Of a stretch of 64,000 bases of DNA, positions 17,005-59,478 are shown one piece after another. A model generated the notes under the pieces. That model was not told the DNA's origin. It saw nothing but the letters and a program-made list of their open reading frames with translations, and made no database searches. Positions within the stretch are counted from its first letter, which is position 1. The number at the start of each line of letters is the position of its first letter. The translations under genes were made by a program, and so were the position numbers. The DNA lies in the NCBI GenBank assembly GCA_944359055.1, contig CALVSO010000002.1, positions 5,935-69,934 of the forward strand, written 5' to 3'. Source of the DNA: an uncultured Bacilli bacterium. GTDB taxonomy: Bacteria > Bacillota_I > Bacilli_A > RF39 > UBA660.

Positions 17005-17523
17005 ATGAAAAAATTAATATTGATTATTTTTTTAATTATTTTGTTTTATGAATGTATAGGGCATGTGTCTAGTTTAGCTATTCCTGATGATGCTTTAAGA
17101 ATTAGAGTTATTGCTAATAGTAATTCAGAGTATGATCAAGAAATCAAAAAAATAGTAAAAGAAAATATTCAATATAAAATGTATGAACTATTAAAAAATA
17201 CTAAAGGTGTAGATGAAGCAAGAAGAATTATTAATAATAATTTAGATAATATTGAAGATGATGTTAAAACTACTTTACAATTATTAGATTATGAATTAGG
17301 ATATGATATTAATTTTGGATTAAATTACTTTCCTAGTAAAGAATATAAAGGAATTACTTATGATGAAGGTTATTATGAGTCATTAGTTATTACATTAGGA
17401 GAAGGTAAAGGTGATAATTGGTGGTGTGTTTTATTCCCTCCTTTATGTTTATTAGAAGCAGAAGAAAGTACTGAGGTAGAATATACTTCATTTGTAAAAG
17501 AACTACTAGATAAATATTTATAA
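17005..17523 (+). CDS. spoIIR: Stage II sporulation protein R (SpoIIR)-like signalling protein
   Basis: Signal/TM N-terminus. LRIRVIANSNSEYDQEIKKIVKE and GDNWWCVLFPPLC match conserved SpoIIR blocks. ATG 17005 behind RBS aggtga. Confidence 0.65.
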   Translation: MKKLILIIFLIILFYECIGHVSSLAIPDDALRIRVIANSNSEYDQEIKKIVKENIQYKMYELLKNTKGVDEARRIINNNLDNIEDDVKTTLQLLDYELGYDINFGLNYFPSKEYKGITYDEGYYESLVITLGEGKGDNWWCVLFPPLCLLEAEESTEVEYTSFVKELLDKYL

Positions 17524-17553
17524 ATTATGCTATAATGTATTTAGGGTGGTAAT

Positions 17554-20055
17554 ATGATTCGAGAAGTAGAAAATGGAATAACAAAAATTGATGATAGAGT
17601 AATTGAGAACAATCAAATAAAAAGTGTAAAAATACCAGAAAGTGTAGTAGAGATAGGTAAATGTGAATTTAGTACTAAGAGAATAACGAAAGTGGAAATA
17701 GCAGAAGGTGTAACAAAAATTGGACCCTGGGCATTTGCGAACAATTTAATAACAAGCATAAGAATACCAGGAAGCGTAGTCGAAATAGGCGAAAGTGCAT
17801 TTAGACGTAATAAAATAACGAAAGTAGAGATAGCAGAAGGTGTAACAAAAATTAGATCCCTAGCATTTGAGGACAATCAAATAACAAGTGTAATAATACC
17901 AGAAAGTGTAGTTGAAATAGGCAGGAGTGCATTTGAGAATAATCAAATAACAAGCGTAATAATACCAAGAAGCGTAGTTGAAATAGGCGAAAGTGCATTT
18001 AAGCACAATCAAATAACAAGCGTAATAATACCAGAAAGCGTAGCCAAAATAGGTTATAGTGCATTTGATCACAATCAAATAACAAGTGTAATAATACCAG
18101 AAAGCGTAGTCGAAATAGGTGAATTTGCATTTAGAAACAATCAAATAACAAATGTAAAAATACCAGGAAGTGTAGCCAAAATAGGGTATGGTGCATTTAT
18201 GGGTAATCAAATAACAAGTGTAATAATACCAGAAAGCGTAGTCGAAATAGGTGAATTTGCATTTGAGAATAATCAAATAAAAAGTGTAAAAATACCAGAA
18301 AGCGTAGTCAAAATAGGCAAAAATGCCTTTTGTAATAATCAAATATCGGAAATAGAAATAGCAGAAGGTGTAATCGAAATAGGCTTTCTTGCATTTTTTG
18401 ATAATCAAATAACAAGCGTAAGAATACCAGAAAGCGTAGCTAAAATAGGCAAAAGTGCATTTGCTCACAATCCGTTAACAAATATTTATCTTCCTAAAAA
18501 GATATCAACAGTTTCTATGAGTTCATTTGATGATTGTAATTTAAAAGAAATGACTTTTTACAGTACATTAAAAAACATATCAAGTGATTACAATTATTCC
18601 GATAATAGTTTTCGTGAAATAGAAGAAATTACAATAATAGAAGCGGATTATAAATATTTAACTTATTTTGAAGAAAAAATGTTAGGATTTTTTCCTAATG
18701 TAAAAAAAATAAATTTAAAAAATTTCTTGGTAGATTTATTTGATGTAAAAGAGGTGAATTTTTCAAATCCAAATGTAAAAATAAATATTCAAAACGTTAT
18801 TATAGATAATAGCGGTGTAAAAAATATAACAAATAAATTTAACTTATCTCAAGAAACTTTAGAATTAATTATGCAAATTTATGAAGCAATCAATTTATTT
18901 CCTGTCAAAAAACAAATAGAAGCGGCTTTCATTTTAAAAGAGATAATTAATAACTATGAAAAAAATATTTCTAAGAATGAACCTCAATTTGATTTAAAGC
19001 AAACCTCAAACTTTTCATTAGAAGTTGATAATAAAGATTTAAAAAGTATAGAAATTCAAATGATTGTTTCTCTTCAATCTTTGCTTTATAATTTGAATAG
19101 CCAAAGTCAATCCATAAAAGATTTAGAAAAACTAAAAAAATATATTAATATATTGAAAGAACTAGAAGAACCTGATAATGATATTGAAAATAAGATAAAA
19201 AAAATTTTAGAAATTTCTAAAAAACTAAATTTTGAAAAAAGTAGTGACTACTTAAAAGATTTGATTTCTAAAACTGAACAAGAAATTGTATCTTCGATTA
19301 ATTTTGATTTGTCGATAAAATTAGTATATACAGATTGTATTTTAGAATTGGAAAATAAAATTAATAATATGTATGAAAAATATAGTCAAATATGGAAAAA
19401 AATCAAACCATATTTCGAATTGAAAGAACAGTTAACTAAAGGTGATTTTGCCAACATTAAGGAAATTAAAAATGTCTTAAATAGGTTAGACAGTTTCACG
19501 AAAAACAAATATGACAAAATTTTAAATAAATTAGAAGAAGACTTTATTACAAAAATTAATGATTGTATAGAAATAACAAAAAATAATAAGGAAGCTGATT
19601 CGATTAATGAATTGAAAACGGAATTTAAAAATCAATTAAATCCAATTTTGGTTGAACTAAAAGAAGATGCTTTGAAATATGAAAGAAATGGTAAATTATT
19701 GAATGAGCTTAAGCAATCTTTAAATATATTAAAAAACGAAAATGTAGATGAAGTCGATGGCTCTATATATGAAACAGTTGTTGATATTAAAGGATTAACT
19801 CAAAATTTAAATAAAAATGAAAGAGAACAAACAAATTTAGAAGTAGAAAATATTATTATTAAATGGTTAAAAATTGTACAAGAAAATAATTACGGGGAAT
19901 TAGTAAAAAAATATAAAGAAGAAAGACCTGATTTAGAAATATCTAATTCTATATTAATAGTTCACTTAATAATATTAGATGATTTATTAAAAGTAAAAGA
20001 TTATATTAATTCATATTTAGAAAATAAAAAAGAATATGATAGTTTTAAAAAATAG
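17554..20055 (+). CDS. BspA-type leucine-rich repeat (LRR_5) protein with a long K/E/N-rich coiled-coil C-terminal half. No signal peptide.
   Basis: About 14 tandem 22-aa repeats I[TK]SVxIPESVVEIGxxAFxxNQ, then about 520 aa of low-complexity helical sequence. Confidence 0.75.
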   Translation: MIREVENGITKIDDRVIENNQIKSVKIPESVVEIGKCEFSTKRITKVEIAEGVTKIGPWAFANNLITSIRIPGSVVEIGESAFRRNKITKVEIAEGVTKIRSLAFEDNQITSVIIPESVVEIGRSAFENNQITSVIIPRSVVEIGESAFKHNQITSVIIPESVAKIGYSAFDHNQITSVIIPESVVEIGEFAFRNNQITNVKIPGSVAKIGYGAFMGNQITSVIIPESVVEIGEFAFENNQIKSVKIPESVVKIGKNAFCNNQISEIEIAEGVIEIGFLAFFDNQITSVRIPESVAKIGKSAFAHNPLTNIYLPKKISTVSMSSFDDCNLKEMTFYSTLKNISSDYNYSDNSFREIEEITIIEADYKYLTYFEEKMLGFFPNVKKINLKNFLVDLFDVKEVNFSNPNVKINIQNVIIDNSGVKNITNKFNLSQETLELIMQIYEAINLFPVKKQIEAAFILKEIINNYEKNISKNEPQFDLKQTSNFSLEVDNKDLKSIEIQMIVSLQSLLYNLNSQSQSIKDLEKLKKYINILKELEEPDNDIENKIKKILEISKKLNFEKSSDYLKDLISKTEQEIVSSINFDLSIKLVYTDCILELENKINNMYEKYSQIWKKIKPYFELKEQLTKGDFANIKEIKNVLNRLDSFTKNKYDKILNKLEEDFITKINDCIEITKNNKEADSINELKTEFKNQLNPILVELKEDALKYERNGKLLNELKQSLNILKNENVDEVDGSIYETVVDIKGLTQNLNKNEREQTNLEVENIIIKWLKIVQENNYGELVKKYKEERPDLEISNSILIVHLIILDDLLKVKDYINSYLENKKEYDSFKK
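17605..18481 (+). repeat. Array of about 14 near-identical 66-nt tandem repeats encoding the LRR units
   Basis: Visible nucleotide-level periodicity (ataacaagygtaataataccagaaagcgtagtygaaatagg...). It generates spurious antisense ORFs. Confidence 0.8.
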
Positions 20056-53745: not shown

Positions 53746-55125
53746 ATGGAAAATATTTCACAAATAACTGATATGTTAGAGCTTGAAATAGAAAAATTTA
53801 AATCTGACAAAGATGAATTAGAACAAGCAAAAACTTTAAATGATTTATATGAAGATATTATTAGTTCAGCTGGTGATATAAATAAAATAATAAACAACAA
53901 AGAAGCTATTTTAATAATATTAGATACATTTGATAAAGATATCGCTCTACAATTATCAAAAAAACTGGTTTTAATTCAATGGTATCAACAAAAGAATTTG
54001 ATAGATTTAGATGAATATAAGAATGCTATTAAAATTGTAAATAATTTATTTGGTAAAATAATTAGAAAAAATGAAGAAATAAAAGACAAAATTGCCGATT
54101 TAAATAAAAGGATAAATGCCAACAAAGGCAAAATAAAATTATTTGAAATTACTTTAAAAAAAATAAAATATAAACAATATATACCATATAAAATTGTTAA
54201 ATTTTTAGATAATTTTTTTCAAGAAAAAGAAATTTCACAAATTGAACAAATTAAATTTTTAGAAATTATAAATATATATAATAGAAATATATACGAAAAG
54301 ATTCATCATTATTCTCCAAGTTATAAAAATGAAGTTTTAGATATGTTATCATTTGGATTTGAAATAATTGAAGATAATAGTCTTGATTATAATCAAGACA
54401 TTGCTAAGAAAGCAGATCTCCATTATTCTCTTTTAAAATATCAAGATGATTTTAAACAATATTTTGAAGAAATTAGGCAAGAAATATTAAACGAAAATGA
54501 TTTAAAATTGTTTTTTATAATAATGATTCAAAAGTTACAAGAGCAGATACTTGAAAATATTACATTAATTAAAGATAAAGATTTCTATGTCGATCTGGAT
54601 ACAAAAAAAGAAATTGTTAATGAATTTAAAAGATTAACGAGTCTATCTCTAAAATTTAGAAAAGAATATTTTAATATTATTAGTAAAGATGATGAAGTTG
54701 TTGAAACATCTGATATAAAAGTAATTTTTGCTCAAGATTCAAATGGTAAAACATATTTTTTAAAGGATTTAAAAAATATCAATAATGAATATTTACCAAA
54801 AGTTTTAGATTTAATTACATCATTAATTAATGGTACACTAACAAATAAAAATATTGAGGGTTTTACATCTCTTTACAAAGATTTTAGAAAATTAAAAGAT
54901 GATCAAATAAGAATTGTCTTACATCCAATTAATCCTAAACTTTATTGTATAATGGGGGTTGGAGTAAAAAAGAATAATACAGGTAATATTATATATAAAA
55001 CTTTATGTGGAAGAAAATATCCAACAAATGAAACAGAAATATCTAGATTACTTGAAAGTAGTGATAATGATTTAGAATATATTGAACAATATATTATGGA
55101 AAACAAAAGGAAGGGAAATAGATGA
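53746..55125 (+). CDS. Hypothetical K/E/N-rich helical protein with a RelE/ParE-like C-terminal region
   Basis: C-terminus ...FRKLKDDQIRIVLHPINPKLYCIMGVGVKKNNTGNIIYK resembles the RelE/ParE beta-strand core (yRivY.vd...v.il.vGhRk..Y). No other recognisable motif. Confidence 0.45.
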   Translation: MENISQITDMLELEIEKFKSDKDELEQAKTLNDLYEDIISSAGDINKIINNKEAILIILDTFDKDIALQLSKKLVLIQWYQQKNLIDLDEYKNAIKIVNNLFGKIIRKNEEIKDKIADLNKRINANKGKIKLFEITLKKIKYKQYIPYKIVKFLDNFFQEKEISQIEQIKFLEIINIYNRNIYEKIHHYSPSYKNEVLDMLSFGFEIIEDNSLDYNQDIAKKADLHYSLLKYQDDFKQYFEEIRQEILNENDLKLFFIIMIQKLQEQILENITLIKDKDFYVDLDTKKEIVNEFKRLTSLSLKFRKEYFNIISKDDEVVETSDIKVIFAQDSNGKTYFLKDLKNINNEYLPKVLDLITSLINGTLTNKNIEGFTSLYKDFRKLKDDQIRIVLHPINPKLYCIMGVGVKKNNTGNIIYKTLCGRKYPTNETEISRLLESSDNDLEYIEQYIMENKRKGNR

Positions 55126-55316
55126 TAGAATATTTATTAAAAGAATTACTTGATATGAATGTATCTAATGAAGATTTTGATGAAAAATACTATATATTAT
55201 TAAAAAATGTAAGTCAAATGAGTAGTGAACAATTACAAAAACTTAAACAAATTGTTTTGAAAAAATTAGAGTATGATTCAGGAATTTATGAACGAGAAGC
55301 AGAAAGGACAAAATAA
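55122..55316 (+). CDS. Hypothetical 64-aa protein, translationally coupled on both sides
   Basis: ATGA overlaps with the upstream gene and with ldh. Confidence 0.35.
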   Translation: MIEYLLKELLDMNVSNEDFDEKYYILLKNVSQMSSEQLQKLKQIVLKKLEYDSGIYEREAERTK

Positions 55317-56291: not shown

Positions 56292-57443
56292 ATGATCAAT
56301 AGAATTATATTAAATGAAACTTCTTATTTTGGTTATGGGTCAAGAAGTGTATTAAAAGATGAGATAAAAAAAAGAAGATATAAAAAAGCTTTAATAGTAA
56401 CGCAAGAAAATATTTTAAAAAATGTTACTGATAAAGTATTACAAGTATTAGAAGGATTTGAATACGAATTATTTATGGAAATAAAACCAAATCCAACTAT
56501 AAAAAATGTTAAAGATGGTGTTAGTAAATGTAAGGAAATTAATGCTGATTATATTATTGCTATTGGTGGTGGATCAGTTATTGATACTGCTAAAGCAATT
56601 GGTATTATTATGACTAATCCTGAATTTAGTAATGTTGTTTCTTTAGATGGTACTGCAGAAACAAAAAATAAGTCATTACCTATTATAGCTATTCCAACTA
56701 CTGCTGGAACTGCAGCAGAAGTAACTATTAACTATGTTATAACTGATGAAGAAAGAGTTAAAAAAATGGTATGCGTTGATCCTCATGATATTCCTGTTTT
56801 ATCAATTATTGATCAAGAATTAATGATGGAAATGCCTAAAATGGTAGCTGCTTCTACTGGTATGGATGCTTTAACTCATGCTATTGAAGGATTTATTACT
56901 AAAGCTGCTTGGGAAATGACCGATATGTTTCATTTAGAAGCAATTAAATTAATATTTAATAGTATTGAACAAGCGGTAAATGAAAAAGATAAAAAAGCTA
57001 TTGAAAATGTAGGATTAGGTCAATATATAGCCGGTATGGGATTTTCTAATGTAGGTTTAGGCTTAGTTCATGCTATGGCTCATCCATTAGGAGCTTTATA
57101 TGATACACCACATGGTATAGCTAATGCAGTTATTTTACCTTATGTAATAGAATATAACTCTAATGTTTGTTATGATAAATTAAAAGAAATAGCTAAAGCT
57201 ATGAATTTAGAAGTTGATAATTTATCTAATGAAGAAGTAGCTAGTAATATAGTAAATTCTATTAAAGAAATGAATAAAAAATTAGGTATTCCTTCTAATT
57301 TAAAAGAATTAAATGCTTCTTTAAAAGATATGGATTGGCTAGCTAATGCTGCTTATAATGATATTTGTTTAGGTGGTAATCCAAAAGAAGCTAGTGTTGA
57401 AAATATTAAAAAAATATACGAAAGAATATATGAGGGGATTTAA
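56292..57443 (+). CDS. Iron-containing (group III) alcohol dehydrogenase (lactaldehyde/propanediol oxidoreductase-like)
   Basis: GGGSVIDTAKA motif and His-rich metal site (HAMAHPLGA). Confidence 0.82.
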   Translation: MINRIILNETSYFGYGSRSVLKDEIKKRRYKKALIVTQENILKNVTDKVLQVLEGFEYELFMEIKPNPTIKNVKDGVSKCKEINADYIIAIGGGSVIDTAKAIGIIMTNPEFSNVVSLDGTAETKNKSLPIIAIPTTAGTAAEVTINYVITDEERVKKMVCVDPHDIPVLSIIDQELMMEMPKMVAASTGMDALTHAIEGFITKAAWEMTDMFHLEAIKLIFNSIEQAVNEKDKKAIENVGLGQYIAGMGFSNVGLGLVHAMAHPLGALYDTPHGIANAVILPYVIEYNSNVCYDKLKEIAKAMNLEVDNLSNEEVASNIVNSIKEMNKKLGIPSNLKELNASLKDMDWLANAAYNDICLGGNPKEASVENIKKIYERIYEGI

Positions 57444-57480
57444 AATCTCCTTTTATTTATGGTATAATTAATAAAGGTGA
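57437..57480 (+). repeat. Copy 1 of a 44-bp terminator-hairpin/extended -10/RBS module (gatttaaaatctccttttatttatggtataattaataaaggtga)
   Basis: Identical copy at 57933-57976. Each copy lies 4-8 nt upstream of an ATG. Confidence 0.7.
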
Positions 57481-57484
57481 TAAG

Positions 57485-57898
57485 ATGCAAATATTAAAAA
57501 ATATAAAATTAAATAATATAAATTATTATGCAGTAATCGAATTAGAATATAAGCAATCAGAAAACAAATTGCCAGTATTACGTCTTAAAAATTACAAAGA
57601 TGGTTATTGGGATAGCGGAGATTGTTCAATTTTAATTGAAAAAATTGAAGAAAATTATTCATCAAAAAAAGCACATCAATATGATAATAATATTGCTTAC
57701 ATGGCTGATATTTTATATATATATGATAGAATGCCTTTTATAAGTGGTGTAAAAGACATTAACATTTCTAATAATATGATATCTGAAGAATCATATATTT
57801 CAAAAGAAGAAATAGAAAAATATATTAAAGAATTTGATGTAAAAATGAATTATATTGATAATTTTAAATTAAGTGATTCTAGGACTTGGAAATTTTAA
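57485..57898 (+). CDS. Hypothetical 137-aa protein flanked by the duplicated module
   Basis: No recognisable motif. Preceded by TGgTATAAT and RBS aaaggtga. Confidence 0.45.
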   Translation: MQILKNIKLNNINYYAVIELEYKQSENKLPVLRLKNYKDGYWDSGDCSILIEKIEENYSSKKAHQYDNNIAYMADILYIYDRMPFISGVKDINISNNMISEESYISKEEIEKYIKEFDVKMNYIDNFKLSDSRTWKF

Positions 57899-57932
57899 TA
57901 TATTCATTTTAAAAACTAAAATTGTAAAAGGA

Positions 57933-57976
57933 GATTTAAAATCTCCTTTTATTTATGGTATAATTAATAAAGGTGA
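57933..57976 (+). repeat. Copy 2 of the 44-bp module
   Basis: See copy 1. Confidence 0.7.
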
Positions 57977-57980
57977 TTTT

Positions 57981-58853
57981 ATGTTGTTAAGTAATGAATG
58001 GATTGATTATGAATGTTTAAGTGCTGGTAATGGTGAAAAATTAGAAAGATGGGGTAATGTAATTTTAAGAAGACCCGATCCTCAAGCAATGTGGCCTATT
58101 AAAAATAGTAATTTATGGAATAATATAGATGCTTTTTATCATCGTTCTAATAAAGGTGGAGGTTATTGGGAATATAAAAAACAATTACCTGATCATTGGA
58201 TAATAAAGTATAAAGATTTGAAGTTTAAAGTAAGTCCTACTAATTTTAAACACACAGGATTATTTCCTGAACAAGCAGCCAATTGGGATTTTTCAATTAA
58301 TAAAATAAAAAATAGTAAAAGAAAAATTAAAGTTTTGAATTTATTTGCTTATACAGGTGGAGCAACTATGGCAGCAAGTTATGCAGGAGCTGATGTTGTT
58401 CATGTTGATGCATCTAAAGGTATGGTTGAATGGGCAAAAGAAAATATGAAATTATGTGGATTAGAAAATAATAAAATAAGATTTATTGTGGATGATTGCT
58501 TAAAATTTGTACAAAGAGAATTTAGAAGAGGAAATAAATATGATGTAATTATTATGGATCCTCCTAGTTATGGAAGGGGTCCTAATGGTGAAATGTGGAA
58601 GTTTGAAGACAATTTATATAATTTAATTAATGAATGTTTAAAAATATTAAGTGATGAACCATTATTTTTCTTAATTAATGCCTATACAACTGGTATATCA
58701 AGTACAGTTTTATATAATATTTTAAAAACTACTTTAGAAAGTAAATATAAAGGAAAAGTTATTGCTGGAGAAATTGGGTTACCTATTAAAGATAATAATT
58801 TAGTTTTACCTTGTGGTATATATGGAAGATGGGAAAATGAAGATACTATATGA
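57981..58853 (+). CDS. Class I SAM-dependent RNA methyltransferase (RlmI/YwbD-like)
   Basis: FAYTGGATMAAS...DAS (SAM site) and DPPSYG motif. ATG 57981 follows the RBS in the repeated module. Confidence 0.7.
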   Translation: MLLSNEWIDYECLSAGNGEKLERWGNVILRRPDPQAMWPIKNSNLWNNIDAFYHRSNKGGGYWEYKKQLPDHWIIKYKDLKFKVSPTNFKHTGLFPEQAANWDFSINKIKNSKRKIKVLNLFAYTGGATMAASYAGADVVHVDASKGMVEWAKENMKLCGLENNKIRFIVDDCLKFVQREFRRGNKYDVIIMDPPSYGRGPNGEMWKFEDNLYNLINECLKILSDEPLFFLINAYTTGISSTVLYNILKTTLESKYKGKVIAGEIGLPIKDNNLVLPCGIYGRWENEDTI

Positions 58854-59478
58854 AGATAATCATTTATTAGTAGTTGTAAAACCAGTTAATGTTCCAGTTT
58901 GTGAAGATGAATCTAAAGATGAAGATTTATTAAATATGTTAAAAAAGTATTTAAAAGAAAAATATAATAAACCAGGAAATGTTTATTTAGGGTTAGTCCA
59001 CAGATTAGATAGACCTGTAAGTGGTGTTATGGTATTTGCTAAAACTAGTAAAGCAGCTTCAAGATTAAGTGAACAAATAAGATTAAATAAGTTAAAAAAA
59101 GAATATCACGCTATAGTTATTGGTAAAGTTGATAAAGGTATCTATAAGGATAATTTATTAAAAGATAAAAAAACAAATATAACTAAAGTAGATAAAAATG
59201 GAAAAGAATCAATTTTAGAATATGAATTAGTAAAATATGTTAATAATTATTCATTAGTAAAAATTAATTTAAAAACAGGAAGATCACATCAAATAAGAGT
59301 TCAATTTTCATATCATAATCATCCATTGGTAGGAGATAATAAATATAATAAAATAGAAGTAAAAAAAATCCCTGTTTGTTTATTTGCTAATAAATTAACA
59401 TTTTATCATCCAATAACAAAGGAAGAATTAGTTTTTGAAGAACCATTACCTAATTATTATCCTTGGAACTTATTTTAG
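58837..59478 (+). CDS. RluA-family pseudouridine synthase (short form lacking the S4 domain)
   Basis: HRLDRPVSGVMVFAKT catalytic Asp motif. Confidence 0.8.
   Translation: MKILYEDNHLLVVVKPVNVPVCEDESKDEDLLNMLKKYLKEKYNKPGNVYLGLVHRLDRPVSGVMVFAKTSKAASRLSEQIRLNKLKKEYHAIVIGKVDKGIYKDNLLKDKKTNITKVDKNGKESILEYELVKYVNNYSLVKINLKTGRSHQIRVQFSYHNHPLVGDNKYNKIEVKKIPVCLFANKLTFYHPITKEELVFEEPLPNYYPWNLF

Follow-up and report, generated by a model that had tools for sequence, protein, structure and literature searches.

We conclude that the control module lying between an alcohol dehydrogenase gene (ADH) and an RNA methyltransferase gene (MT) was probably duplicated by recombination around a unit carrying a small accessory gene, p137, and that a later event in one lineage fused p137 to the upstream copy of the module. 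The junction itself is older and variable, and the perfect 45-bp duplication is the form it takes in that lineage. From comparison of related sequences, the interval between ADH and MT appears as a strain-variable replacement hotspot.

The locus and its neighbouring genes

The window, by which we mean the whole 64,000-nucleotide stretch of DNA that was analysed, comes from a 24% GC relative of Candidatus Faecisoma merdavium, with approximately 94% nucleotide identity. The host is an uncultured chicken-gut bacterium. The locus has the following features, and related loci are referred to by L numbers throughout.

56292..57443, + strand: ADH, Fe-dependent alcohol dehydrogenase (lactaldehyde reductase/FucO-like, 383 aa); Pfam Fe-ADH and ADH_Fe_C, NCBIfam
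57433..57481, + strand: module copy 1; repeat, terminator-like and TG -10 matches, fold
57485..57898, + strand: p137, 137-aa accessory protein; weak T-fold-like predicted structure
57899..57928, + strand: 30-nt spacer 3' of p137, TATATTCATTTTAAAAACTAAAATTGTAAA
57929..57977, + strand: module copy 2; repeat, terminator-like and TG -10 matches, fold
57981..58853, + strand: MT, SAM-dependent RNA methyltransferase (RlmI/RlmK-L-like, 290 aa); Pfam Methyltrans_SAM, NCBIfam
58837..59478, + strand: RluA-family pseudouridine synthase (213 aa), overlapping the MT stop; Pfam PseudoU_synth_2

The ADH product scores 568 bits against the NCBIfam lactaldehyde reductase model (cutoff 537). Synteny of MT with the RluA gene, the conserved downstream flank, is kept in most of 80 related loci. 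The 30-nt spacer is part of the inserted unit; its portion AATTGTAAA is also present in L018, an allele that lacks p137.

Extent and anatomy of the repeated module

An earlier, sequence-only reading of this DNA had reported an exact 44-mer at 57437-57480 and 57933-57976. This pair was recovered on the + strand with no third copy in 64 kb, and a search of the window at up to three mismatches returned no further copies (0 matches in 100 shuffles). Copies 1 and 2 are the sole sizeable dispersed direct repeat in the window, and a dispersed repeat family there is ruled out, just two copies being found at up to three mismatches. The exact identity runs one base beyond the 44-mer, to 45 bp (57437-57481 and 57933-57977, ending in GGTGAT), while a leftward extension through AGG[G/A]GATTT brings the match to 48 of 49 positions from 57433 and 57929. 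Over a 60-nt stretch the copies, spaced 496 bp apart, are 90% identical. We also considered whether the homology reaches into the ADH coding region and rejected this, as the 9 of 17 positions matching beyond AGG (by eye) are at the level of the AT-rich background.

Each copy was said to contain a hairpin with a T-run, a TG-extended -10 and a ribosome-binding site, contents that terminator and -10 scans and predicted folds reproduce. Copy 1 comprises a stem-loop (57432-57452), a T-run (57453-57459), the putative extended -10 TGGTATAAT (57460-57468) and the SD sequence AGGTGAT (57475-57481). In copy 2 the hairpin (57925-57951), a perfect palindrome of 12-13 bp, is followed by a T-run, TGGTATAAT (57956-57964) and the SD (57971-57977). 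The SD stands 3 nt 5' of the ATG in each copy; the 44-mers, which had been placed 4-8 nt before an ATG, both end exactly 4 nt before it (57485 and 57981). Two further details needed amendment. The hairpin given for both copies, ggagat-ttaaa-atctcc, holds for copy 2, whose 5' arm is GGAGAT, but in copy 1 this arm is GGGGAT and one pair is G-U. Copy 1 does adjoin ADH, but rather than simply following the gene it overlaps the final codons (GGG ATT TAA), with the stop at 57441-57443 inside the hairpin; the last three codons and the stop all sit within this structure.

Both copies have the sequence features of an intrinsic terminator, including the U-rich tail TTTTATTTAT, and both are among the four terminator-like sites found in 5 kb, against 0.7 expected. 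Their predicted folding energies are -9.6 kcal/mol (z -1.9) for copy 1 and -13.8 kcal/mol (z -5.2) for copy 2. The putative terminators lie across the ADH stop (copy 1) and 27 nt 3' of the p137 stop (copy 2). The scan likewise reads TGGTATAAT as a TG-extended -10 in both copies, but it finds fewer promoter-like sites than in shuffled sequence (37 versus 45) and the -10 motif by itself is therefore weak evidence. All close relatives, L022 included, share a conserved TG[G/A/C]TATAAT ahead of MT, and the promoter/SD half is kept upstream of MT across all related loci. A leader of no more than some 10 nt is predicted. Searches that included Rfam found no known RNA family, riboswitch or tRNA at the locus.

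It might be argued that nothing was duplicated, and that the two copies either converged on an optimal terminator/promoter/SD consensus or were created by assembly. The string is indeed partly consensus-like: 25-28 nt of its promoter/SD portion recur ahead of PFOR in this lineage and ahead of unrelated genes on other low-GC contigs (L122-L124 and L128). We nevertheless give this explanation practically no credence. The 48/49 identity spans non-consensus positions in the loop, the stem, the interruptions of the T-run and the discriminator, and only three extended -10 plus SD arrangements occur in 64 kb, two of them being copies 1 and 2. The two-copy arrangement, moreover, recurs on 12 contigs from independent samples (L101, L102 and L104-L113), and so is not an assembly artefact; ERZ24773346 and ERZ16268055 are among the samples with window-type contigs.

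The gene between the copies

The 137-aa reading frame had been described as having no recognisable family. It is true that profile searches against Pfam, NCBIfam, PADLOC and PDB sequence profiles gave nothing significant, but p137 belongs to a conserved family of 66 proteins. Its 66 homologues, a dN/dS of approximately 0.3 and an AlphaFold model with a pLDDT of 95 establish p137 as a real gene, and the exact protein is encoded on 18 contigs. A match to PHROGs was marginal (E 0.005). The strands and helices of the AF2 model follow an order compatible with a T-fold, a weak resemblance, and Foldseek searches of PDB and BFVD gave no match at E ≤0.001.

Synonymous divergence dates the gene relative to its surroundings. 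The dS of p137 is 0.24-0.28, compared with 0.17-0.35 for the flanking genes, and against L020 the values are 0.40 for p137 and 0.38 for MT. With a dS equal to that of the flanking genes, p137 is on this sequence measure an old resident of the locus, and a recent horizontal insertion is ruled out. Sliding identity reveals no sharp island of divergence except in the first 100 nt of p137. In several sister species p137 adjoins MT and has its own promoter-like sequence, TTGACT-N17-TAGAAT, which is common to L020, L021, L114, L120 and L121 (before p137) and to L001 and L012 (before a second gene, p344, that precedes p137) and is missing from the window. The earlier suggestion of a cassette-like insertion thus does not hold for any recent event, given the flank-like dS and the separately promoted p137 next to MT in sister species. 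Traces of recombination are present in the form of mosaic p137 alleles and a tract common to L012 and the window.

Alternative alleles between ADH and MT

In the window and its relatives, the ADH-MT interval takes five states:

Empty, with a single module joining ADH and MT: L127, L125, L022
p137: window, L004
p344 and p137: L001, L012
Unrelated reverse-strand gene: L018, and L129 at 37% identity
IS110-family insertions inside the module

The check proposed with the earlier reading, a search of relatives for an empty site with one module, therefore succeeded, and the situation said to count against it, two copies everywhere with no empty allele, does not obtain. L127 is a 7.5-kb contig, 97-98% identical to the Ca. 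F. merdavium loci; its empty junction cannot be a repeat collapse, because T1' and T2 of the L127 background share only 7-nt exact strings. L125, like L127 an allele of the sister species, is empty in a sample that also holds the occupied L126 and the L018-type L129. In L022, from a more distant species whose MT is 91% identical, a single module joins ADH and MT. L100, a 1.5-kb scaffold, equals the window minus one repeat unit, exact over 1073 nt, and is the sole empty allele in the haplotype background of the window. It is doubtful, since the opening 200 nt come from another ADH and a short-k assembler could collapse a 45-nt repeat; we had considered it as the decisive empty site and downgraded it, taking L127 and L125 instead. 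L098 was rejected as a true arrangement, since the contig is probably chimeric across IS copies; on the left it is flanked by the PFOR/lipoprotein intergenic module.

The upstream copy differs in what it retains. It consists of the hairpin only in L004, L119 and L001, of the T-run, promoter, SD and TTTTAT in L114, and of the hairpin, promoter and SD in the window. The flanking repeat is 36 nt at 97% identity in L114 and 37 nt at 78-84% in L004 and L119. Upstream and downstream copies in otherwise identical L114-type haplotypes show 0-1 differences (L114), approximately one (L116) or approximately five (L120), and copies 1 and 2 of L108 differ at four positions. L011 diverges exactly at the end of the hairpin, and its tail has no match anywhere. 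Neither p344 nor the reverse-strand gene of L018 has a Pfam family, and their PADLOC matches were dismissed as apparent coiled-coil noise.

Origin of the two-copy state

The earlier alternative of a duplicated native regulatory module is borne out, in that the repeat is a copy of the ADH-to-MT intergenic module with its terminator, extended -10 and SD. We propose an ancestral state with one module, in the order ADH-T-P-MT, in which a p137 unit with its own TTGACT-N17-TAGAAT promoter would have lodged so that the module was repeated on either side. Different lineages would then have kept different portions of the upstream copy. In the lineage of the window, the whole sequence separating the copy 1 SD from the p137 SD would have been lost, perhaps through a microhomology deletion between the two GGTGAT SDs; a template switch or gene conversion from copy 2 would be an alternative route with the same outcome. 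The right edge of the repeat in the window is GGTGAT, and the next bases, AAG ATG, match the native leader of p137, GGTGATAAAATG, not that of MT, GGTGATTTTATG.

Under this scheme p137 would now be terminated, transcribed and translated by the signals of MT: copy 1 would end ADH transcripts and start those of p137, and copy 2 would end p137 and start MT. It had been suggested that the small gene receives the same transcriptional signal as its downstream neighbour, and in the window lineage p137 does appear to carry the promoter and SD of MT. If the direct repeats of 45-49 bp recombined, p137 would be excised exactly and one functional module left behind, an event that would account for the empty alleles; these could also be ancestral rather than deletions.

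One observation weighs against our reading, namely that the copies are identical at 45 of 45 positions although the adjacency of p137 and MT is old. Strong selection, gene conversion or a recent re-duplication would have to account for such identity. In addition, permutation tests for a remnant of the promoter half upstream of p344 or p137 were not significant in L001 (p ~0.6) or L020 (p ~0.14), and a single ancestral 54-nt duplication is for this reason parsimonious rather than demonstrated. The same two observations favour a secondary copying event confined to the window lineage. Its ancestor would have resembled L004, L119 or L001 in having a repeated hairpin and nothing more; a template switch or conversion tract beginning in the hairpin homology would have brought in the T-run, promoter and SD of copy 2 and switched back at the GGTGAT within the p137 SD, overwriting the native promoter (and p344) in one step. 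Hairpins are stalling and switch points, which suits such a start. The copies are perfectly identical against a neutral divergence of 20-40% between lineages, L001 and L020 show no detectable promoter-half remnant, and the copy differences in L114, L116 and L120 do look like sporadic conversion. This route, however, requires the switch back to occur on just 6 nt of microhomology. L114 has, independently, a promoter/SD half that occupies this position upstream of p137 and is oriented alike, for which one older duplication is simpler, and L108 indicates that the copies do not obligatorily co-vary. We regard secondary copying as unlikely and retain duplication of the module around the p137 unit, followed by fusion, as the preferred account.

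Comparison with known mobile systems

A further possibility is that p137 is a site-specific cassette, the module or its hairpin being an attachment site and the repeats attL and attR, moved by an integron-like recombinase, a tyrosine or serine integrase, or the IS110-family bridge-RNA recombinase of relatives. Several different cassettes do occupy the same point, and L011 departs exactly where the hairpin ends. In relatives an IS110-family (DEDD) element interrupts the module at a single site, TTTATGA^TATAAT, in copy 1 as well as copy 2, and in L116 IS copies sit in the two modules around p137. Elements of this family target short repeated sequences such as REP, IS621 being an example (PMC11208160). 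A tblastn search of the 64-kb window found no transposase, IS110 transposase or p344 homologue, the flanking genes scanned against Pfam included no integrase or recombinase, and neither a recombinase nor an att-like structure was found at the locus. The junctions vary by allele, falling after the T-run, GGTGAT or TTTTAT, with no fixed crossover point; the age of p137 speaks against active shuttling; and the IS lies inside the module, not at the cassette boundaries. We consider this explanation very improbable.

Likenesses to individual systems are nonetheless instructive. As in integrons, a small ORF is flanked by a repeated element and different genes occupy the site in different strains, but IntI, attI and an attC-type imperfect palindrome are all missing here; the hairpin is a perfect terminator-like stem of 6-13 bp closed by a loop of 3-5 nt. 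A promoter is usually lacking in integron cassettes, whereas in this locus the repeat itself is the putative promoter. In the Campbell model the insert lies between attL and attR direct repeats, typically of tens of bp; the locus shares the flanking direct repeats of the target and a one-copy hybrid empty site, and differs in having no integrase found, a single small gene as insert and lineage-dependent junctions. A transposon or IS with target-site duplication does not fit either: the insert holds p137 only, the repeat is 45-49 bp rather than 2-15 bp, and no terminal inverted repeats were seen beyond the terminator palindrome. The IS110-family element of relatives sits at a precise position in several module copies, but it is missing from the window, and as far as the data show it exploits a repeated promoter string and does not create the duplication; no bridge RNA was found for it in Rfam searches.

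Closer parallels come from two other concepts. The minimal mobile element (MME) of Neisseria (Saunders and Snyder 2002), in the definition quoted in PMC3082526, is resembled in the alternative alleles, five states being found between ADH and MT, in the lack of mobility genes of its own, and in that exchange or loss by homologous recombination is plausible. Judged against that quoted definition, the locus differs in that a 45-49 bp duplicated regulatory module brackets the cassette and supplies the promoter of the gene, and exchange through the flanking genes would here be putative. Putative mobile promoters (PMPs; Matus-Garcia, Nijveen and van Passel 2012, PMC3488235) are sequences of more than 50 nt with at least 80% identity, located 50-150 nt upstream of a start codon, whose upstream and downstream CDSs must also be non-homologous. 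As with PMPs, two non-homologous genes of one genome are headed by the same promoter-containing sequence, and the expression of one of them appears rewired. Here, though, the repeat is 45-49 nt long, lies at -52 to -4 (-63 to -4 for the 60-nt stretch), includes an SD and a terminator, and has adjacent (496 bp) rather than dispersed copies. The concept fits, but the 60 nt at 90% identity, upstream of non-homologous genes, falls mostly outside -150 to -50.

We also entertain, as improbable, the idea that the module is a genus-wide portable landing pad, an active rather than a passive substrate, on the basis that the same string heads unrelated genes, is an IS110-family target and marks every cassette junction at the hotspot. 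If this were true, an IS110 recombinase or IS-IS recombination would move genes between modules, and arrivals would get a ready-made promoter and terminator.

Significance

The locus is a well-documented and ordinary case of repeat-flanked gene gain and loss, that is, of ordinary genome microevolution, and no new kind of mobile element or regulatory mechanism is revealed. It provides a natural example in which an accessory gene seems to have been wired in by re-using the terminator, promoter and SD of its neighbour, and the direct repeats that result would allow p137 to be removed cleanly. Metagenomes of a single uncultured genus supply empty, occupied, doubly occupied, replaced and IS-disrupted alleles, a series that can illustrate how a hotspot behaves in reduced low-GC gut bacteria. 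The analysis also delimits a small, uncharacterised family of proteins whose fold is predicted with confidence.

Finally, many public gene calls annotate MT as a 326-aa form, with a GTG start at 57873 that crosses copy 2. In relatives without p137 the MT alignment begins at residue 1 of the 290-aa form. The 326-aa calls, which read across the module, probably have the wrong start, and we flag them here as a likely systematic mis-annotation.

Structure of the duplicated module

The locus is a repeat-flanked accessory gene with a duplicated regulatory module and hotspot turnover. This is an ordinary process, well resolved here, and not a new kind of element. A search of the 64 kb window bore out the exact 44-mer reported by the sequence-only reading, which occurs twice on the + strand (57437-57480 and 57933-57976); allowing up to three mismatches turned up no additional copy there, and 100 dinucleotide-preserving shuffles gave 0 matches. 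Sequence reading and a repeat finder extend the exact identity to 45 bp, reaching ...GGTGAT at 57481/57977. Leftward extension through AGG[G/A]GATTT gives 48/49 identical positions from 57433/57929, and a 60-nt stretch is 90% identical between the copies, which are spaced 496 bp apart. No other sizeable non-tandem direct repeat is present in the 64 kb window. Three details of that reading needed adjustment: copy 1 does lie at the end of the alcohol dehydrogenase gene (ADH), where it overlaps the last codons and stop (GGG ATT TAA, stop 57441-57443) instead of merely following them; the hairpin 5' arm GGAGAT belongs to copy 2, copy 1 having GGGGAT; and both 44-mers stop 4 nt short of their ATG, not 4-8 nt.

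Elements of the module copies

57432-57452, +: stem-loop of copy 1
57925-57951, +: stem-loop of copy 2 (12-13 bp, perfectly palindromic)
Each copy: tract TTTTATTTA
57460-57468 and 57956-57964, +: extended -10, TGGTATAAT
57475-57481 and 57971-57977, +: SD, AGGTGAT, 3 nt before the ATG

In a consensus scan of 5 kb, where 0.7 terminator-like sites would be expected, 4 were listed, both copies among them; both copies were also listed as TG-extended -10 sites. The predicted RNA fold is -9.6 kcal/mol (z -1.9) for copy 1 and -13.8 kcal/mol (z -5.2) for copy 2. If the -10 is used, the predicted leader would be only about 10 nt.

Between the copies lies p137, the 137-aa ORF, which is a real gene. Upstream is a lactaldehyde-reductase-like Fe-ADH; downstream are a 290-aa SAM-dependent RNA methyltransferase (MT) and then an RluA-type pseudouridine synthase. 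Public gene calls on most window-type contigs take a GTG within the 3' end of p137 as the MT start and read through copy 2 (326 aa, 57873-58853). Relatives lacking p137 align with the 290-aa form, which supports 57981 as the probable start over the 326-aa call. Candidatus Faecisoma merdavium, a MAG from chicken gut listed under Mycoplasmatota, has an MT 99% identical to that of the window, and the locus as a whole shows about 94% nucleotide identity to that species.

Alleles of the ADH-MT interval

We fetched 129 related loci, most of them homologous to the window locus, and typed them by tblastn. In distant relatives (L023-L027, L031, L033, L034, L077) LDH directly adjoins MT-RluA, while L022, whose MT is 91% identical, has LDH-ADH-MT with a single module in the order stop, hairpin GGGAAT..ATTCC, T-run, TGCTATAAT, SD, ATG. 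Within the Faecisoma group the interval exists in five states.

States of the ADH-MT interval in the Faecisoma group

Module, p137, module (window): 12 fetched contigs from many samples (L101, L102, L104-L113), plus L011
Hairpin, unique spacer, p137, module: L004, L119
Hairpin, TTGACT-N17-TAGAAT promoter, p344, p137, module: L001-L003, L012-L017, L126
Different terminator, unrelated reverse-strand gene, promoter half of the module: L018, L129
Empty, one module

That the two copies match by convergence or through an artefact is vanishingly improbable: the exact repeat is unique in the window, and the two-copy state recurs on contigs from so many samples that it is not an assembly artefact.

The presence/absence polymorphism for which the sequence-only reading had suggested looking was found, since L127 and L125 are empty with one module. 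L127, a 7.5 kb contig 97-98% identical to Ca. F. merdavium loci, reads LDH - ADH...TATGAGGGGATTTAAAATCTCTTTTTATTTATGATATAATTAATAAAGGTGATTTTATG - MT - RluA - deacetylase. In occupied alleles of its background the two hairpins share only 7-nt exact strings, so its junction cannot be an assembler collapse. L125 has the same ADH-module junction and comes from a sample that also holds the occupied L126 and the L018-type L129; the L125 and L126 contigs stop at one and the same base, a pattern that two co-occurring strains should give. L100 equals the window minus exactly one repeat unit, with 1073 nt exact across the junction; its first 200 nt are a different ADH and the 45-nt repeat is open to collapse, and its standing as an empty allele is doubtful.

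In sister species (L020, L021, L114, L121) p137 precedes MT and a DUF2207 gene stands upstream in place of ADH; more distant p137 homologues occupy unrelated contexts without flanking repeats. In many Ca. F. merdavium contigs the protein p344 (L001:2955-3989, 344-345 aa) is encoded downstream of the TTGACT promoter and ahead of p137, and it is 100% conserved among these contigs. It has no Pfam or PADLOC match, and a functional pairing with p137 is possible. L004 keeps only the last codons of p344; this 3' end is recognizable in its spacer (p < 0.001, permutation tests), which makes L004 a deletion derivative.

The reverse-strand genes that replace p137 (L018:5532-5951 (-) and L129:2596-2910) encode products of about 130-139 aa with a coiled-coil N-terminus and a Cys-containing C-terminus, 37% identical to each other and neither assigned to a family. 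In L011 (2768-2867), which has a window-type copy 1 and a 94% identical p137, the similarity stops precisely where the copy-2 hairpin ends on its 3' side and gives way to a different hairpin, T-run and TATAAT with no match among the fetched loci; this tail could be either a chimera or an additional insertion.

Age and history of the arrangement

Synonymous divergence from Ca. F. merdavium alleles is 0.24-0.28 for p137; the values for ADH, MT and RluA are 0.17-0.35, and LDH reaches 0.53. In the comparison with L020, p137 has 0.40 and MT 0.38. Because these values are comparable to those of the flanking genes, p137 is, by this measure, not a recent arrival. The interpretation offered by the sequence-only reading is partly borne out: the duplication and the presence/absence pattern stand, and a recent cassette insertion is not supported. 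The p137 alleles are mosaic, and therefore recombination has occurred among them.

A separate promoter, TTGACTTTTAAA..TAGAAT, precedes p137 in L020, L021, L114, L120 and L121 and p344-p137 in L001 and L012, and is absent from the window; most simply, it would be the original p137 promoter. L114, too, has a direct repeat of MT-module sequence on both sides of its p137 unit, made of another portion of the module (36 nt at 97%): the T-run, TGATATAAT, SD and TTTTAT, whose final AT is the start of the MT ATG in the downstream copy. L004 and L119 repeat no more than the hairpin and T-run (37 nt at 78-84%). Relative to the unit AGGGGATTTAAAATCTCCTTTTATTTATGGTATAATTAATAAAGGTGATTTTAT, the three lineages (the window, L114, and L004 with L119) keep the overlapping positions 1-49, 19-54 and 1-31, in the same place and orientation. 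Permutation tests gave no significant promoter-half remnant in L001 or L020, and the two copies in L108 differ at four positions.

These partial copies point to a single, older event in which the ADH-MT control module was duplicated on either side of an inserted [promoter-(p344)-p137] unit; lineage-specific decay would have followed. The window lineage would have lost the stretch between the copy 1 SD (GGTGAT) and the p137 SD (GGTGATAAAATG in L001, L004 and L020), yielding ...AATAAAGGTGAT|AAGATG and leaving p137 with the same predicted terminator, promoter and SD as MT. Recombination between the repeats would then delete p137 and leave a working hybrid module, as L127 and L125 appear to have. 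Deletion is the more parsimonious reading of these empty alleles, because the ancestor of their species probably carried p137 and their flanks lack a foreign tract. Weak points of this reading are the lack of a significant promoter-half remnant in L001 and L020 and the 45/45 identity of the copies in an old arrangement; the identity could be due to re-duplication, to gene conversion or to selection acting on a promoter in use. A template switch in one step, or a conversion tract copied from copy 2, accounts for that identity directly. Such an event would have to switch back on just 6 nt of microhomology, and it leaves the upstream copy in L114 a coincidence; we regard it as a minority possibility, to be taken seriously beside the older duplication.

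Relation to known systems

The closest concept is the Neisseria minimal mobile element, defined in PMC3082526 by flanking genes that are conserved and whole-gene cassettes that differ in the space they enclose, an organization also found here. Putative mobile promoters (PMC3488235) resemble the locus in promoter reuse; the repeat does not fit the upstream region and length on which that study's definition rests (-150 to -50, more than 50 nt). The locus does not match a transposon.

Several cassettes at one site, together with an IS110-family element at one precise module point in relatives, could suggest a site-specific cassette system. We consider this very improbable, given that no recombinase was found (tblastn of the window for the IS110 transposase, Pfam scan of the flanking genes), junctions vary among alleles, the hairpin is not attC-like and p137 is old; an integron cassette is no match on the hairpin and recombinase counts.

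The IS110-family element is about 1.6 kb, encodes a 394-aa protein (DEDD_Tnp_IS110 plus Transposase_20) and is inserted at TTTATGA^TATAAT with TGA on both sides.

Occurrences of the IS110-family element

L098:600-2232
L116:1-122 and 677-2240
L118:697-2040
L120:1-65

It occupies the MT-proximal copy (L098, L116, L118) or the copy upstream of p137 (L116, L120), and in L116 two elements bracket the p137 unit; it also lies in the PFOR-gene copy of the promoter string (left flank in L098). These insertions recall IS621 targeting of REP sequences (PMC11208160). The element was not found in the window, and no bridge RNA was identified for it.

The 25-28 nt promoter/SD string ATTTATGATATAATTAATAAAGGTGAT also stands, always 3-4 nt from the start codon, before the same lineage's gene for pyruvate:ferredoxin oxidoreductase (PFOR) and, in other contigs of low GC (0.28-0.31), before genes unrelated to it (L123:144-168 (-), L128:13401-13425 (-), L122:628-652, L124:2104-2128). 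Its recurrence may reflect convergence on a consensus or dispersal.

Other features of the window

GC content is 22-33%, climbing to 0.29-0.33 at about 34-48 kb. Across the whole 64 kb, ARAGORN found no tRNA or tmRNA and no Rfam family reached its gathering threshold. Between rpsI and LDH (53746-55316) are 459-aa and 64-aa ORFs with no recorded Pfam family, their synteny kept in all Faecisoma-type contigs. A tandem array (17453-18544, within ORF 17554-20055) comprises about 16 units of 66-nt period at 62-73% identity; the 833-aa product carries the corresponding 22-residue repeats of leucine-rich type (..ITSVIIPESVVEIGESAF.NNQ..). Just upstream of that ORF, at 17528, is TGCTATAATGTATTTAGGGTG; apart from it and the two module copies, the window has no extended -10 plus SD arrangement.
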